Part shown: positions 48,383-54,520 of the stretch, in pieces
How the letters are laid out: every line of letters starts with the position of its first letter
Numbering within the stretch: the stretch's first letter is position 1
Source: an uncultured delta proteobacterium
GTDB taxonomy: Bacteria > Myxococcota_A > Polyangia > Polyangiales > Polyangiaceae
Assembly (NCBI GenBank): GCA_963850305.1
Contig: CAWKKR010000008.1
Span: 736,001-800,000 of the forward strand
Reading direction: 5' to 3'
DNA: 64,000 nucleotides
Translations under genes and position numbers: made by a program
Notes under the pieces: model-generated
Told to the model about the DNA's origin: nothing
The model's database searches: none
The model's input: only the letters and a program-made list of their open reading frames with translations

Positions 48383-51080
48383 TTGGCCCTCGATCGCGAG
48401 AAGATACTCCAGGCCGCCCAGAAGCATGTCGACAAGAAGAAGTTCGACAAGGCGATCCAGGAATACCAAAAGATCATCCAGCAGGATCCGACCGACGCAC
48501 GGACTCTGCTGAAGATCGGTGATCTGCAAGCGCGGATGGACGCGTACGCGGAGGCGATCGCCACCTATGACCGTGTCGGCCAGCACTACTCGGCGCAGGG
48601 CTTCGCCCTCAAGGCCATCGCCGTTTACAAGCAGATCCGCGAGCTGATCAAGAAGCACGTCCCTCAACTGGAGGACCGGTACGGGCACATCGTTCCGAAG
48701 CTCGCGACGATCTACACGGAGCTCGGGCTCACCACGGACGCCCTCGCCGCGTACGACGAGGTCGCGACCCGGCTACAGCGGGCCGGACGCGACCGCGACG
48801 CGATCGACGTGTTCCGCAAGATGGTGTCGCTCGACGCCACGAACCCGCTTCCTCATCTCCGCCTCGCGGAAGCCTGCTGCCGAGTTCAGGCGGTCGACGA
48901 AGCCATCGATTCGTTCTGGACGGCCGCCGAGCTGTTGATCCGTCTGAAACGGCGCGACGACGCTCTCAAGGTCGTCGAGCGGATCTTGCACTTTCGCGCG
49001 GAAGCCAAGTACGCGCGCGTCGCGGCTCAACTCTATCTGGAACGCGGCGGGCAACAGGACGGCCTGCAAGCGCTCGCGAAGCTGCAGCTCTGCTTCCAGG
49101 CCGATCCGAAGAACATCGAGGTCCTCGATCTCCTGTCCCGCGCCTTCGTCGCGATCGGACAAGCGCCGAAGGCCCTCGAAGTCAAAAAGGAGATCGCTCG
49201 ACTCGCGCAGGAGCAAGGGCGCGCTGACGTGTTCGATGAGGTGATGGCGTTCCTCCGGAACGCGGCCCCGGACGACGAACAGGTGCTTGCGCTGCTGCGC
49301 GGGCCGATGTCCGTGCGGCCCGGGGCAACCTCCCAGCGCCCCGAAGCCAGCTACGACGACGTCGAGTTGATCGACTCATCCGTACACCCGCAACCGAGCT
49401 CGCGGGCGGCCGTATCGATCGTTCCCGATACGTCGGATTTCGACTTCGACGACGAGCCGGTGTCGCGCGGTGCACTCGCGAGCTCCGTGCGGATAGACGA
49501 CGCGGAGCGGGACGTCCGCGCGGCGCGGCCGTTCATGGCGAGCTCCCCGGATGTCGTCGTCGTGGACGAGGACATCGAGGCCGCCGAGGAAATCGTCGGC
49601 GCGGACTCGGCCGATGCGCACGCACATGCCCGGAAAGCGGTCGTGGATGCCGAGTCGTTCCGCGGCCTCCGCCTCTACAGCAAGGCCATCGAGACCTTGC
49701 ACATCGCGCTCGAGATCGAGCCGCAGTCGCTCGAGATTCGCGAAAAGCTCCGCGACGTCTTGCTCGAAGCGGGCGATCGTGACGGCGCGATCGGCGAGAT
49801 GATTTCGCTCGCCGCGATCCACATCGACCGGGGGGCATTCGGAGACGCCGAGGCCGAGCTCTATCAGGTGCTCGAGGCCGAACCAGGACATCCGACGGCC
49901 TTCGAGATGCTCGAGCAACTCGCGGCGTATCGGTGGCGAGGTCGCGCCGTACACCGACGAGCACAATGACACGACCACCGCAGAAGTCGCCGAGCCGGAG
50001 CTCATCCGCGAGCCTTACGACCCCGAGGCGCCGCTGCCCTCGTACGACTTCGAAGAGATCCCGGCGGCCGCTGCGATTCGCGAAGACCCTGCGCACGGTC
50101 GGCGCGCGCTCGAGCAGGCGGATGATCCGTTCGAGACCATGGCCCGCGAGGCGCCGGCACAGGCGTTCCTGCGCAAGGTCGAGGACCTGGATGATTTCAT
50201 CGAAGAGCCAGAGCCCGCCGCGCCTCCGCCCCGGGCGTCACTCGCGCCGTCGGGCGTGGAAGGCATCGAAGAGGCGCTCGAGGAGGCCGAGTTCTTCACG
50301 CTGCGCGGTCTGGTGGACGACGCGCGTGCGATCCTCGTGGACGCGCTCGCGCGGGCACCGGGGCACCCGCTGCTCGTCGAGCGGCTGCGAGAGCTCGACG
50401 GCAACCCGGACACCGCCCAGAGCGGCACGCACGAACGGACCGACCCCGAGCAGGCGCCTCAGGAAGACCGCGTCTTCGACATCGCCGCGTCGCTCGACGC
50501 TCTCGACGAGCTCGAACAAGCCACCCGATCGTCGCGCCCGCCGACGTCACTGCGTCCCGTCGACGAGGTCGACGTCGACCAGGTCTTCGCGAAGTTCAAG
50601 GAAGGCGTCCGCGCGCAGATCTCCGACTCCGACAGCTCGACGCACTACGATCTGGGCGTCGCTTACAAGGAGATGGGCCTCTTGCCCGACGCCATCAACG
50701 AATTCGGCGTCGCCGCCCGGGATCCGAAGTTCGAGTGCACCTGCTACGCCATGATCGGGATGATTCAGCTGGAGCAGGGCCAGTTCGACGATGCCGCCGA
50801 GTCTTACATTCGTGGCCTCGGGGCGGCGCAGAAGACCATCGATCAGGAGATGAGCCTCTATTACGACGTCGGAAACGTGTACGAGCTGAAGGGGAACAAC
50901 CCCGAGGCCCTCTATTACTTTCAGAAGATCGCGCGCCGCGATCCCGGCTACCGCGACGTCAAGGACCGTGTCGACGCCCTGACCCCCGCCTCGGCGGCAA
51001 AGCCGACCGCCGCCAAGCGTCAGCTCCAGAGCGACGACGAGCTCGAAGCCGCCTTCGACGATCTATTCGAATCCAAGTGA
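48383..51080 (+). CDS. Large TPR protein, SgmX-like architecture (apparent +1 frameshift near 49930)
   Basis: N-terminal TPRs (KKFDKAIQEY, LKIGDL, GFALKAIAVYKQI), acidic linker, C-terminal THYDLGVAYKEMGL...YRDV TPRs. Confidence 0.75.
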
Positions 51081-51100
51081 ATGTCCGCGTGCCTACTGGG

Positions 51101-51601
51101 AAAGGGGGCCTTGCCCTTGCCCCCGCGGCTCGCTGCGCGACCGCTCCCCCGCCGCCTTCGGCGGGCTCGTGTTCGCAAGGGGGTCTTGACCCCCGCGGCT
51201 CGCTCCGCGACCGCTCCCCCGCCGCCTTCGGCGCGCTCGTGTTCGCAAGGGGGTCTTGACCCCCGCGGCTCGCTTCGCGACCGCTCCCCCGCCGCCTTCG
51301 GCGCGCTCGTGTTCGCAAGGGGGTCTTGACCCCCGCGGCTCGCTCCGCGACCGCTCCCCCGCCGCCTTCGGCGCGCTCGTGTTCGCAAGGGGGTCTTGAC
51401 CCCCGCGGCTTGCTTCGCAACCGCTCCCCCCGCCGCCTTCGGCGCGCTCGTGTTCGCAAGGGGGTCTTGACCCCCGCGGCTCGCTTCGCGACCGCTCCCC
51501 CGCCGCCTTCGGCGGGCTCGTGTTCGCAAGGGGGTCTTGACCCCCGCGGCTTGCTTCGCAACCGCTCCCCCCGCCGCCTTCGGCGCGCTCGCTGCGCTCG
51601 C
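51101..51601. repeat. 70-bp structured tandem array 1 (6 full units plus 1 partial)
   Basis: Units start at 51120, 51190, 51260, 51330, 51400, 51471 and 51541; consensus CCCCCGCGGCTCGCTCCGCGACCGCTCCCCCGCCGCCTTCGGCG(C/G)GCTCGTGTTCGCAAGGGGGTCTTGA. Confidence 0.95.
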
Positions 51602-51659
51602 GTAGTGCCGCGGCTCTTTGATCCCTCGGGGACGACGCTGCTCGTCGATGCGGAACTAC
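51602..51659. repeat. GTAG...CTAC hairpin element, homologous to 16905-16961
   Basis: GTAGTGCCGC...GACGACGCTGCTCGTCGATGCGGAACTAC. Confidence 0.85.
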
Positions 51660-51668
51660 TAGGAAGCT

Positions 51669-52901
51669 CTACGCCGCATGAGGTTTGATCTCGACTTCGC
51701 AGCCGAGGTCGGTCAAGCGGCGGACGAGGCGTTTGATGGTCTTGCTCTGGTCGCGGCGGTCGAAGTGATGGGGTCCGAGGTCGCGGTAGGGAGTGCCGTC
51801 GCGGAGCATGTAGAAGGCGGCGGTGAGCATCGATGCGGCGACGGCCAAGATCGCCTTCTTTGCTCCACGGCGGGACTTGAGCCGGAGAAACTGGGCTCGA
51901 AGGTAGCTTTCCTTCGTGCGCACCGCGGCCCAGGCGGATGTGACGAGCGTCGTCTTGAGCCAGTTGGCGCTCTTGCGGACGCGCGTCGAGCGACGCTTGC
52001 CGGCGCTCTCGTCGTTGCGGGGGCAGAGGCCGGCCCAGGACACGAGGTGTCCCGCAGACGGGAAGCGCGACATGTCGACGCCGATCTCCGCCACGATCAC
52101 GTTCGCGACGATGTCACTCACTCCCGGCATCGTCGTCAGGATCTCGGCGTGCGCCCGGATCGGCTCCAGCGCTTTTCCCGCAGCTGCATCGATCTCGGCC
52201 AGGGCCCCTTCGAGCGAGCCGATGACGCCGAGATGCAGCTTCAGCATGGCTCGGTGATGAGGGGTAACCCGCCCGCGCAGCGCTTCGATCAAGTCGGCCC
52301 TCTTCTTGCGCGCGGTACCGACCGCGAGATCGGCAAGGCGCTCGGGGTCATCTTCTCCGGCGATGAGAGCGGCGAGCATCGCCCGGCCGCTGGTCCCGAG
52401 CACGCTGGACAGGACGCTCGCGACCTTGATGTTCGAGTCCTCGAGCGTTTTCTGTATGCGCAGCGTGTGCTGGGCGATTTCTCGCACGAGCTGCGCGCGC
52501 GTTCGAGTGAGATCGCGCAGCTCCTGGATTCGCGCAGGAGGCACGAAACTGCTGCGGATCAGCCCGTGCGCGAGCAGATCGGCGATCCACGTCGCGTCGT
52601 TCACGTCGGTCTTGCGCCCTGGCACGTTGCGAATGTGCTGGGCGTTCGCGAGCACGAGTTCGAAGCTCCCTTCGAGCATGTGCCAGACCGGCTTCCAGTA
52701 CACGCCGGTGGCCTCCATCGCCACGTGGGTCACGCCGTGCTCCTCGAGCCATTCCGCCAGCTCGAAGAGGCTACGTGTGGTCGTGCCGAACGTTCGGACC
52801 TCGCGCCGCGTTGGTTCGCTGACGCAGCGCACGCAGGCAACGACGCTATCCTTGTGGACGTCGAGGCCCGCGCAACGGGGATACATGACTTCCATGACCA
52901 T
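51669..52901 (-). CDS. IS110-family DEDD recombinase/transposase
   Basis: GLDVHK, MEATGVYW, KTDVNDA, LCPRNDESAGK; AGGAGG RBS. Confidence 0.96.
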   Translation of the reverse strand: MVMEVMYPRCAGLDVHKDSVVACVRCVSEPTRREVRTFGTTTRSLFELAEWLEEHGVTHVAMEATGVYWKPVWHMLEGSFELVLANAQHIRNVPGRKTDVNDATWIADLLAHGLIRSSFVPPARIQELRDLTRTRAQLVREIAQHTLRIQKTLEDSNIKVASVLSSVLGTSGRAMLAALIAGEDDPERLADLAVGTARKKRADLIEALRGRVTPHHRAMLKLHLGVIGSLEGALAEIDAAAGKALEPIRAHAEILTTMPGVSDIVANVIVAEIGVDMSRFPSAGHLVSWAGLCPRNDESAGKRRSTRVRKSANWLKTTLVTSAWAAVRTKESYLRAQFLRLKSRRGAKKAILAVAASMLTAAFYMLRDGTPYRDLGPHHFDRRDQSKTIKRLVRRLTDLGCEVEIKPHAA

Positions 52902-52904
52902 CTC

Positions 52905-53100
52905 CTCCTTTCGGCGCGTCGAGAGGAGCCCTCGTCATCGAAGTCTACTAGGCGTGCTCCCGGATCTTTCGACCCGCGGTCACAATTCGGGGTGCTCGCA
53001 GGGCTCCGGGTCCATCTACTGAACGGGTTCTTGGCACCAAGTCACGGCCGACCTCGTTCCCGACGCCGCGGCAGGATACACTCGACTCCACCGTCCACGC
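52905..53100 (-). ncRNA. Putative bridge RNA of the IS110 element (boundaries approximate)
   Basis: Non-coding end contains TCAGTAG (53016-53022), matching the upstream flank plus core, and CCTAGTAG (52945-52952), matching the distal element end plus core. Confidence 0.6.
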
Positions 53101-53149
53101 GACGACCCGAGCTTCATGCTTCGGGGACGGCGCTCTCGCCGATGGGCAT

Positions 53150-54520
53150 CTACTGACATTCGTATGGACCGCACAGGATCAGCAAACAGGACTGCTTGCA
53201 AGAGCCGCTCGTGCAGTCCGTGCCCGTCGAGCAGCCTTTGCCTTTTGCACACTTGGCGCAGAGCGCACCGCCGCAGTCGGTGTCCGTCTCGTCGCCGTCT
53301 TTCTTGCCGTCGGTGCAATGCGTCCCGCACTGATTCGCGACGCCCCCGCCAGCGCAGGTCGCCGGCGCCGTGCAGCCCGGGCAAGTCAGCGTGCCGCCGC
53401 ACTTGTCGGAGATGGAACCGCACTCGTTGGCGATGCACTGGGTGAGCGGCGTGCAGCCGCAGATCCCCTCGTTACAAGGTCCGCTCGAGCAATCCGACGT
53501 CGCGGAGCACTTCTTCCCGGGTGCGCAAGTGGCGCCGCAGTTGCCGCCGCAATCCACGTCCGTCTCCGCGGCATTCTGCACGCCGTCCGAGCACGTCGCG
53601 GACTGACACGTGGACTTGGCATTAAAACCCGTCCCCTTCTTGCAGACGTCGCTCGCGCAATCGGTCCCAGCGCCGCAATCCTTGCCGTCCGAGCATTTGC
53701 TACAGACGCCTCCGCCGCAATCCACGTCGGTCTCCGAGCCATCCTTCGTGCCGTCCGAGCAGGTGCTCGGAGGGCCGCCGCCTGCGCCCGTCGTGCCGCC
53801 TGAACCCGTCGTGCCGCCTGAACCCGTCGTGCCGCCTGAACCCGTCGTGCCGCCTGAACCCGTCGTGCCGCCTGCGCCCGTCGTGCCGCCTGCGCTTGTC
53901 GTGCCGCCCGTCGCTGTCGCACCACCTGCGCCCGTCGCGCCGCCTGCGCTTGCCGTGCCCCCCGTGGCTGTAGTACCGCCCGCGCCCGTCGTGATCTCGA
54001 CGCACGTGGACCCCGATGGTTCGTATCCCGAATAACAACCGAACCCGCAAACGCCGCCCGCGCACTCCGGGTAACCGTTTTCGACCGTCGGACACGCGAC
54101 GCAGTGTCCGAGATCGCATCCGTTCGCTGGGCTCGGCGCCACGCACTCTCCCTGGCACTGCTTCTGCGTGGGGTCTGCGCACTCTCCGGCGACGGACCCG
54201 TCGGGCCCGGCGTCCCGAGCTCCCGCGGTGCCCGCTTCCAGACTCTGCAACGCACCGCCCGACGACGCGTCGCTGACGCCGCCCGCTTCGGTTCCTCCCC
54301 CGCCCTGCGTACCTTCGCCGCCCGCGCCCCCACTCGCGCCTACACCGGATCCACCCGTCGCTCCGGAAGCACCGCCCGAAATCACGCCGCCCTCGTCATG
54401 GCGCGCGCCGACGCCGGCATCGCCAAGAGCGCTGATCTTGCCTCCCACCGTCTCCCCGGTCGCGCACCCGACATACGGGGCGACGACGAAGAGCGCAAGA
54501 AACAAGCGTGATCTACGCAT
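53150..54520 (-). CDS. Cys-rich lipoprotein with GGTTGS linker and three CxDGxxxxxETDxDCGG repeats
   Basis: Lipobox YVGC; 18-bp coding repeats at about 53780-53990; stop codon TAG coincides with the IS110 junction. Confidence 0.8.
   Translation of the reverse strand: MRRSRLFLALFVVAPYVGCATGETVGGKISALGDAGVGARHDEGGVISGGASGATGGSGVGASGGAGGEGTQGGGGTEAGGVSDASSGGALQSLEAGTAGARDAGPDGSVAGECADPTQKQCQGECVAPSPANGCDLGHCVACPTVENGYPECAGGVCGFGCYSGYEPSGSTCVEITTGAGGTTATGGTASAGGATGAGGATATGGTTSAGGTTGAGGTTGSGGTTGSGGTTGSGGTTGSGGTTGAGGGPPSTCSDGTKDGSETDVDCGGGVCSKCSDGKDCGAGTDCASDVCKKGTGFNAKSTCQSATCSDGVQNAAETDVDCGGNCGATCAPGKKCSATSDCSSGPCNEGICGCTPLTQCIANECGSISDKCGGTLTCPGCTAPATCAGGGVANQCGTHCTDGKKDGDETDTDCGGALCAKCAKGKGCSTGTDCTSGSCKQSCLLILCGPYECQ

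Follow-up and report, generated by a model that had tools for sequence, protein, structure and literature searches.

An IS110 element, probably a recently spread bridge recombinase, and its non-autonomous companion

The closest precedent for an IS110 element accompanied by a short non-autonomous module is ISPpu9 with MITEPpu9 (ssr9) of Pseudomonas putida KT2440, where the text of PMC12288879 places the module downstream of five of the seven IS copies; we found no guide assignment for ISPpu9 in that text. Among dispersed bacterial repeats, GTAG REPs are described in the text of PMC3733652 as carrying an unpaired tag beside a palindrome. We analysed a window of 64,000 nucleotides, the whole stretch of DNA presented here, which contains an IS110 element next to a repeated non-autonomous element (MITE) (Table 1). 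The overall best explanation, which we hold with reasonable confidence, is that a bridge recombinase element has recently spread in this genome and is accompanied by a non-autonomous parasite.

Table 1. Features of the IS110 locus, in positions of the window
Feature	Positions	Strand	Remark
IS110 element	51656..53149	-	1,494 bp counting one AG core; 8 copies, same ends
Recombinase gene	51669..52901	-	410 aa; D14, E63, D99, D102, S299 present
GAAGCTC, inner arm of short asymmetric inverted repeat	53109..53115	-	arm agreement in parsed elements
GAGCTTC, partner arm, beside donor CTAGT-AG (51662-51656)	51663..51669	-	arm agreement
Predicted bridge RNA core	52916..53066	-	outer stem around target loop and donor loop
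First target guide CCGTGA-CT (predicted)	53040..53047	-	complementary to core and right flank
Second target guide TCAGT-AG (predicted)	53016..53022	-	matches left flank; covariation in relatives
Handshake-like dinucleotide AT	53014..53015	-	matches left-end bases 1 and 2
First donor-loop guide GAA-TT (predicted)	52984..52988	-	proposed earlier as target guide
Second donor guide CTAGT-AG (predicted)	52945..52951	-	covaries with right end
TATCCT, conserved -10-like hexamer, candidate internal promoter	53073..53078	-	TAnnnT conservation
Host target half TCAGT-AG	53150..53156	-	TAG is stop of upstream gene
456-aa Cys/Gly/Thr-rich ORF	53150..54520	-	lipoprotein-like from reading of N-terminus
MITE, 563 bp	51093..51655	-	left-end-like head, hairpin array, tail TTTCCCAGTAG
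70-bp hairpin-rich unit, 6.8 tandem copies inside MITE	51116..51591	-	TRF, 95% matches
Host DNA right of MITE	51078..51092	+	holds stop (51078-51080) of convergent TPR gene

An earlier note on this DNA had proposed an IS110 element with defined ends, and both proposals were borne out. The recombinase matches PF01548 and PF02371, has the catalytic residues of the family, scores 282.8 bits against NF033542 (cut-off 140) and aligns to IS621 in PDB 8wt6 (E 1.4e-12); the genome contains eight PF01548 genes, all of them in copies of this element that are 99.6–100% identical to one another. All eight have the same ends, one left flank being TCAGTAGTAG. The recombinase apparently is intact and accompanied by a readable predicted bridge RNA; non-coding DNA amounts to 248 bp upstream of the gene and 13 bp after its stop. 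The junctions read TGTCAGTAG/ATGCCC upstream and TTCCTAGTAG/TTCCGC downstream, and the letters of the AGTAG said to be shared by them were correct. As a core, however, AGTAG did not stand: in relatives the core alone, AG, is common to both ends, without target duplication beyond it. AGT is shared here because target and donor of this subclade both end in AGT. The arms of the short inverted repeat agree on G/A at position 4 in 37 of 40 parsed elements, a count in which three elements were mis-parsed and four more lacked the motif.

Relatives were collected as 133 loci, which gave 87 aligned sequences including this element (at least 55% identity and enough upstream DNA). Three of these were unparsed; 70 distinct guide sets resulted, with 43 left-guide and 32 donor-guide 5-mers among them, and 53–56, including kin that are not independent of one another, had the flank needed for covariation counts. 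Five relatives with ambiguous right ends were left out, while mis-called right ends (L081, L098, L078) were kept in the main counts and removed in a re-check. Since a fold of the single sequence (52900–53100), a check that the note had suggested, was no better than shuffles (z 0.61), the predicted RNA structure rests on covariation. It has 35 pairs, with 95.3% of cells paired and 23 pairs showing two-sided change in 45 of the 68 available sequences, picked for similar length, the structure itself being drawn partly from this element; slid controls gave 30–52% paired. A search of Rfam returned no match. The -10-like position reads TAnnnT in 52 of 63 elements, compared with none in the next upstream window and a shuffle mean of 9.7; a strict promoter scan found no promoter.

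Target and donor specificity had been declared readable from the sequence, which proved half right: two of the four guides had been found correctly and the right-target guide had been misassigned. The claim for TCAGTAG (53022–53016) was upheld by covariation, TCAGT matching the left flank at 51, 53, 51, 50 and 48 of 53 relatives over its five positions (shuffle means 15–22). The same is true of CCTAGTAG (CCTAGTAGA at 52952–52944), where CTAGT matches the right end at 51, 54, 54, 55 and 45 of 56 relatives. Left-guide and donor-guide sequences are themselves correlated across relatives, so that cross controls exceed shuffles. Pairing with the right flank is found for CCGTGA, with Watson-Crick pairs at +1, +2 and +3 in 35, 27 and 26 of 53 relatives against 14.0, 12.9 and 12.9 after shuffling, a level reached by 0 of 20000 shuffles; the signal persists when each left-guide class is represented once (n = 33). 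Register +1 was not significant and register –1 was weaker, though above most shuffles (25/20000), and the standard register was retained. GAATT, the right-target guide proposed earlier, stays at chance level there (11, 8 and 17 of 53 against 11.0, 13.7 and 15.0), and covarying stems put it in the donor loop. In 49 of 53 relatives its A, which is invariant, pairs with position +1 of the left end, and this invariance leaves no measurable covariation. The AT dinucleotide agrees with the left end at 103 of 106 positions (shuffle 86.9) and tracks it fully in 8 of 11 non-TT cases; by comparison with the IS621/IS622 papers it may act as a handshake. A donor-loop handshake with the right flank gave no signal in relatives (29/106 versus 27.4).

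Comparison of relatives thus shows that, in both predicted loops, the top-strand-complementary guide precedes the top-strand-identical one. CCGTGA-CT lies 5′ of TCAGTAG, contrary to the note's statement that the loops follow the established order. The predicted target is TCAGT-AG-(TCA...) and the predicted donor CTAGT-AG-(left end). The IS621-type order, in which the 5′ side pairs the bottom strand and the 3′ side the top strand, is inverted here. Read on the opposite strand, the predicted loops have the geometry of IS621/IS622, with a CT core, a second guide of 5 nt plus core and a 2-nt handshake. The predicted RNA is therefore of IS621 geometry with an inverted substrate: AG core, IS1111-type order, upstream location. 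We found no description of such mirror polarity in left-end RNAs in open-access text, although published figures or supplements may show it.

On the host side, TAG at 53152–53150 closes the 456-aa ORF (458 open codons, GC3 0.81), for which no Pfam or NCBIfam match was found. Insertion exactly at a host stop codon, with the stop kept, had been reported and is correct here; it does not extend to a general rule, as the target's TAG ends a gene in only 4 of 8 IS copies under a uniform open-frame/GC3 rule that takes in Cys/Gly-rich genes. Gene-end sites retain the stop because the target ends in TAG. Insertion at stop codons follows from the TAG within the target, probably together with selection, and need not reflect a dedicated mechanism. 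The right end of the element as a replacement stop for opposite-strand genes was rejected as a general feature (3/30 with crude calls, 1/29 under the uniform rule). Downstream, TTCCGC had been taken for ordinary host flank and turned out to be the head of the MITE. The immediate pre-IS site was thus probably TGTCAGTAG/TTCCGC, itself a MITE junction, and the original host site would have been TGTCAGTAG/GCACGC. The host empty site was not found: in three congeners the DNA after the TPR gene is different, and in congener G188 one of 40 MITE loci was syntenic, but too diverged.

The genome contains 64 MITE heads: 50 solo, 5 in tandem, 2 in guide DNA and 7 after an IS. The MITE has no transposase and both its ends resemble those of the IS, the head its left end and the tail its right end, with one mismatch to the IS donor in the tail at this locus. 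Alignments of the head with IS left ends are best for this element and L054 (recombinase 95% aa); for 24 of 53 left ends, no more than 2 of 200 shuffles scored as high. GAATT pairs the head at four of five positions and the IS's own left end at one of five. Left flanks of the 50 solo copies follow the TCAGTAG consensus of the IS target (T28 C26 A41 G47 T40 A48 G46), and G188 shows the same consensus (T26 C23 A26 G31 T30 in 40 heads of 101 fetched, AG being fixed by the search pattern). Right flanks made 46 Watson-Crick pairs with the present right-flank guide, where about 46 were expected (n = 28). They start with A in 13 of 29 cases. Copies of the inner unit are also found with different ends. 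In three MITE-carrying congeners a close recombinase was absent (best 37%, or none; fragmented assemblies). A second MITE family ending in TTTCTGGATAG was considered and dropped, as its four ends genome-wide lie within the permutation range.

A MITE head abuts seven of the eight IS copies, the lone copy having a non-MITE flank; L054 likewise is followed by a MITE head, which its guide pairs at 2/6 positions in the standard register and at 8/9 if shifted by one base. The IS occupies 7 of 15 perfect MITE junctions but, among TCAGTAG sites elsewhere, 1 of 45 (Fisher 1.2e-4), or 1 of 19 when crude CDS calls are excluded (p 0.011 versus MITE junctions). The adjoining heads are 90–100% alike (mean 93.7%), the MITEs vary in length from 112 to 637 bp, and of their seven tails one is exact, two have one mismatch and four were not found, much as in solo MITEs. 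These MITEs have diverged further than the IS, and few of them retain an intact tail, so they were probably already resident when the IS inserted at their junctions. In two IS copies other than this one, the guide DNA is interrupted at its AG core by a 130-bp MITE, the same in both and exact at its ends; the remaining six copies have this site empty, the boundary falling at the core. The two filled sites are probably one insertion event, for which the guide DNA TCAGT-AG was the half-target. In contigs of four runs the circle joint was not seen; contig pieces X1 and X4 span the IS–MITE junction and may come from the source campaign.

Under our preferred explanation, MITEs would have been spread by earlier recombinases of this clade with TCAGT/CTAGT guides like the present ones and different right-flank guides. 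Such earlier helpers are a needed extra step, because MITE right flanks misfit the present right-flank guide. Each MITE insertion would leave TCAGT-AG-TTCCG; TTCCG pairs the first target guide at four of its first five positions, with one G–T. Because this sequence pairs both target guides, the present IS would prefer MITE left junctions as landing sites, which already tolerate an insertion. The RNA could be supplied by read-through of the upstream gene or from the internal -10 element. Excision of the IS, the MITE and possibly IS+MITE as circles is assumed by analogy with IS621 and ISPpu9. A further-reaching combination is conceivable, though as a whole we rate it below even chances, in which helper and parasite are tied into a targeting loop through a guide RNA: the MITE left end would make half-sites full targets; this IS lineage would have reprogrammed its right-flank guide to its own parasite, with MITE-proven sites as safe harbours; the MITE would suit the donor loop better than the IS itself and would attack the half-target built into guide DNA, splitting the target loop; and the element would belong to an IS110 clade that is widespread, has bridge RNAs of mirror polarity and comprises 43 or more natural left-guide 5-mers.

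The order of events could also differ. IS and MITE may move as one unit, as an A-B′ type circle of the kind demonstrated for ISPpu9 in the text of PMC12288879, or donor half-match recombination may add MITEs to the right junction of the IS; the text of 10.64898/2026.08.14.744561 reports IS110s that have tandem non-coding units beside them, matching the donor only. The junction of a composite circle would equal that of the IS alone, and at this locus positions +2 to +5 of the host flank past the MITE (GCACG) pair with the guide, which fits one-unit insertion. The divergence and the 112–637 bp length range of IS-adjacent MITEs argue against it, as does the exact donor end in only one of the seven, whereas both young MITEs in guide DNA have exact ends; we consider this order of events unlikely but worth keeping in view.

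Even less probable is a separate history for the repeat, as an ordinary GTAG-tagged REP/BIME family that the IS merely targets in the way IS621 and ISPpu9 target REPs. It does start after GTAG and is hairpin-rich and often extragenic; its 11-bp inverted repeat includes GTAG in 59 of 64 heads, and the inner unit is not tied to one set of ends. That repeat is long-range, however, unlike the unpaired tag in the GTAG REPs of PMC3733652 as its text presents them. Homology links the head to IS left ends, the tail is the same as the donor end of the IS, insertion at the AG core of guide DNA is precise, and no Y1/RAYT transposase (PF01797) was found in this 94.8% complete genome. Least credible of all is the note's arrangement of guides, with TCAGTAG then GAATT as target loop and CCTAGTAG opening the donor loop. 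It is the order of IS621 as given in the text of PMC11208160, and GAATT is able to pair AGTTC. Yet GAATT is unrelated to right flanks in 53 relatives, whereas CCGTGA is related, and covarying stems join GAATT with CCTAGTAG in one loop and CCGTGA with TCAGTAG in the other, so that covariation already contradicts it.

The locus offers a predicted bridge-RNA scaffold that is fully mapped, far removed from IS621 and rich in natural guide variants; in this clade, an IS621-order reading of guides misassigns the loops. The 130-bp MITE is a natural cargo that defines minimal ends. Two questions can now be put to the test: by what route IS110s acquire dispersed repeats as targets, the repeat here resembling the element's own derivative, and whether guide DNA is a self-target. 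Taken by its known parts alone, the locus repeats the ISPpu9/MITEPpu9 arrangement, as a second case on a larger scale.

With ISPpu9/MITEPpu9, as far as the text describes it, the locus shares an IS110 with an AG core and a non-autonomous module, both of whose ends are near-copies of the IS ends, located downstream of most IS copies, solo elsewhere and in tandem copies, with an internal promoter (a candidate here). End sequences differ. ISPpu9 targets a host REP and its module is an sRNA gene in eight copies (PMC12288879, text), whereas the MITE here has 64 heads and consists of a hairpin array that varies; the IS apparently targets the MITE's own junction, and the MITE has invaded guide DNA. 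IS621 and IS622 (ISCro4), according to the texts of PMC11208160, PMC13626964 and 10.1101/2025.05.14.653916, likewise have a DEDD + Ser recombinase, a left-end RNA with target loop then donor loop, a 2-nt core and a handshake dinucleotide that pairs the donor after exchange. The IS621 protein is distant (E 1.4e-12), guide polarity here is inverted relative to the element, the core reads AG, and most of the specificity lies in the 5 nt plus core of the second guide, with about 3 nt of signal coming from the first. The order of guides within loops is that of IS1111-type seekRNAs, but the RNA lies upstream of the gene and not in a long downstream non-coding region (PMC11187229, text). IS1111 subterminal inverted repeats are 7–17 bp, those here asymmetric and 5–7 bp with the left arm about 33 nt inside, and the length of the recombinase fits the 395–455 aa IS110 subgroup in the text of PMC11187229, outside the 330–350 aa IS1111 range; ISEc21, the sole IS110 member there, is reported with the reverse order. 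Expanded IS110 loci also have non-coding repeat units with donor-end matches beside IS110s (10.64898/2026.08.14.744561, text), and half-match recombination describes insertion on half a guide match (10.64898/2026.08.31.748434, text). Unlike the units of expanded loci, the unit here has both ends, is dispersed genome-wide, and by its insertion apparently creates a better target.

The junction and guide letters quoted for this IS110 element in an earlier note are present in the window sequence. To assign guides by covariation, upstream regions of 87 relatives were aligned, of which 84 were parsed, giving 70 distinct guide sets; element ends were placed by motifs independent of the guides. Both guides proposed there for the flank and the circle junction were borne out, with AG as the core. 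Outward from the core, the TCAGT guide is identical to the left flank at 51, 53, 51, 50 and 48 of 53 (15–22 in shuffles), identity ending at the sixth base (4/53), and the two RNA bases after TCAGT-AG agree with the opening dinucleotide of the left end at 103/106 (shuffle 86.9). The CTAGT guide matches the right end at 51, 54, 54, 55 and 45 of 56 relatives. GAATT, previously suggested to guide the right target flank, does not behave as such (11, 8 and 17 versus 11.0, 13.7 and 15.0 in shuffles). A CCGTGA segment located 5′ of the TCAGT guide pairs with the right flank at 35, 27, 26, 17, 14 and 15 of 53 (shuffle about 12–14; 0/20000), and the signal persists with one element per left-guide class (54/99 pairs, n = 33). 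The first A of GAATT is invariant among relatives and pairs with left-end position +1 in 49/53; by position and pairing rather than covariation, this segment was assigned to the donor loop. Cross controls were also modestly above shuffles (121 versus 100 and 120 versus 102), so kinship inflates all guide tests somewhat. We consider the assignment, read from these sequence comparisons, very probably correct. In one low-depth contig of sequencing run X4 the first target guide carries a variant base, which may be an error.

Folding the single sequence, a check put forward with the original proposal, gave nothing better than shuffles. In the covariation model of 45 sequences, an outer stem encloses two loops, the target loop holding CCGTGA-CT, a hairpin and TCAGT-AG-AT, and the donor loop holding GAA-TT, a hairpin and CTAGT-AG-AC; 95.3% of cells are paired (slid controls 30–52%), and two-sided changes occur in 23 of 35 pairs. 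RNAalifold independently finds the outer stem, the stem that closes each loop and the hairpin in each; the two short donor-loop helices were not recovered by it. Also conserved are a –10-like hexamer preceding the RNA (52/63 elements) and an inverted repeat, short and asymmetric, with concerted changes in its two arms (21 G-G, 16 A-A, 3 mis-parsed; n = 40).

The open reading frame is an IS110 recombinase, as claimed (Pfam; NCBIfam NF033542 above cut-off), with D14, E63, D99, D102 and S299 all present. Residues 230–333 weakly match NCBIfam TIGR-Tas (23.7 bits versus a cut-off of 100), presumably through an RNA-binding domain common to both. The genome holds eight copies, and no other PF01548 genes were found there. 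Copies are 1,494–1,495 bp long and 99.6–100% identical with an internal insert set aside; in one of them the reading frame is shifted by one base close to the 3′ end, which may be an assembly error. All eight start with ATGCCC, following TCAGTAG in all but one and TCAGTAGTAG in that one, and all end in CTTCCTAGTAG.

Insertion at a host stop codon held in part: TAG lies within the target and is retained, but it closes a long GC3-rich frame at only 4/8 IS sites. Under a uniform rule, this applies to 3/44 free sites, 7/36 solo-MITE junctions ending in TAG, and 176/2,886 background AGTAG sites. The simplest explanation of the enrichment would be selection against insertions within genes. Read-through from upstream genes aids IS621 excision, according to the available text of PMC13626964, and by analogy could do so here. 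The neighbouring TPR gene is split into two frames, probably by a frameshift or assembly error; in congeners it is a single frame of 927–942 aa.

Features and their coordinates (G000, source genome; G188, congener)
Feature	Location	Strand	Remark
TPR gene	window 48383-49969 + 50139-51080	+	528 and 313 aa
Recombinase ORF	window 52901-51669	-	410 aa
Variant base	window 53040		core-pairing part of first target guide
Tandem repeat	window 53777-53993		18 bp, 12 copies, Gly/Thr linker; gene upstream of IS
MITE insertions in IS copies	G000 C8:718271-718400; C5:149215-149344		CTAGT-AG directly before target-loop closing stem
MITE-MITE tandem junctions	G000 C7:290986-291397; C1:546053-546322; others		five in all; equal predicted MITE circle junction
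Second repeat family, heads	G000 e.g. C1:409717; C4:429510		25 in all
MITE tail	G000 C7:987272-987384		adjoins opposite-strand sequence resembling tRNA end (by eye)
Hairpin-unit array (locus L148)	G188:C47		right after TPR orthologue; same unit, other ends, equivalent gene end

The TTCCGC to the right of the IS opens a 563-bp repeat in which a 70-bp hairpin unit recurs 6.8 times and which ends in TTTCCCAGTAG. Of its 64 heads in the genome, 50 are solo and 5 follow the tail of another copy, while an IS precedes 7 and contains 2; lengths range from about 70 to 750 bp. The head can be aligned to IS left ends, best to those of this element and of L054, a 95% relative, and tails that are intact have the sequence of the IS donor end. 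Left flanks of solo copies show a TCAGTAG consensus both here and in G188, where head matches number 101 versus 4 for the control. In two IS copies the AG core within the TCAGT-AG guide DNA is occupied by the repeat in an identical 130-bp version, its ends exact, probably one event copied once; this site is empty in the other six. No Y1 transposase was found in the genome. We call the repeat an IS110-dependent MITE and consider its mobilisation by a recombinase of this clade likely. Speculatively, the interrupted copies might express a guide of altered specificity. In 59/64 heads an 11-bp inverted repeat has one arm at the left junction, covering the GTAG, and the other 42–43 nt inside; it shows no compensatory changes, and in our reading the IS left end lacks it. 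The second family shares the 70-bp unit but has a different head, which includes TCACGG, the sequence that the present guide would ideally meet on the right flank; TGGATAG was tried as its end and failed.

TCAGTAG sites genome-wide comprise 44 that are free, 10 before a MITE, 8 before an IS and 6 intact guides. An IS is present at 7/15 MITE junctions (the 2 inside guides left out) versus 1/45 other TCAGTAG sites (P = 1.2e-4), or 1/19 other sites outside crude CDS calls (P = 0.011). Of the first 5 positions of the MITE head, 4 pair with the right-flank guide, a score equalled by 1/44 free sites. MITEs behind IS copies are 90–100% alike, and their tails (1 exact, 2 near, 4 missing) are similar to those of solo copies. 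These observations favour insertion of the IS at junctions of MITEs already resident. Several findings speak against such homing: the guide pairs with positions +2 to +5 of the host flank beyond the window's MITE, it does not suit MITE right flanks as a whole, the L054 guide matches the head only after a register shift, and no close recombinase was found in congeners carrying the MITE. On balance, homing of the IS into resident MITEs seems the more plausible order.

A 51% identical Dehalococcoidia element at five loci (L006-L009, L031; excluded from covariation counts), in tandem at L007 and L009, has the same RNA layout and junctions ending in AAT instead of AG. In the literature text searched, we found no description of mirror-order guides in a left-end RNA (figures or supplements may show them), of a MITE junction as its helper's target, or of insertion into a guide's own DNA. 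As far as the accessible portions of the sources go, IS1111 elements are reported to have the guide order seen here, and the tested IS110 member the opposite one (PMC11187229); unlike IS1111 elements, ours has an upstream RNA and an IS110-subgroup protein length. Flipped, the guide RNA fits the available description of IS622, in which a substrate of 14 nt includes a CT core and handshake bases. Half-match insertion by IS110s, described in a preprint (10.64898/2026.08.31.748434), would by analogy explain MITE entry into guide DNA. Repeat units with donor-end matches adjoining IS110s appear in the available text of a 2026 preprint (10.64898/2026.08.14.744561), and ISPpu9/MITEPpu9, as presented in the accessible text of PMC12288879, offers a precedent: an IS110 with an AG core is accompanied there by a hitchhiking module that bears its ends, and several circles form.
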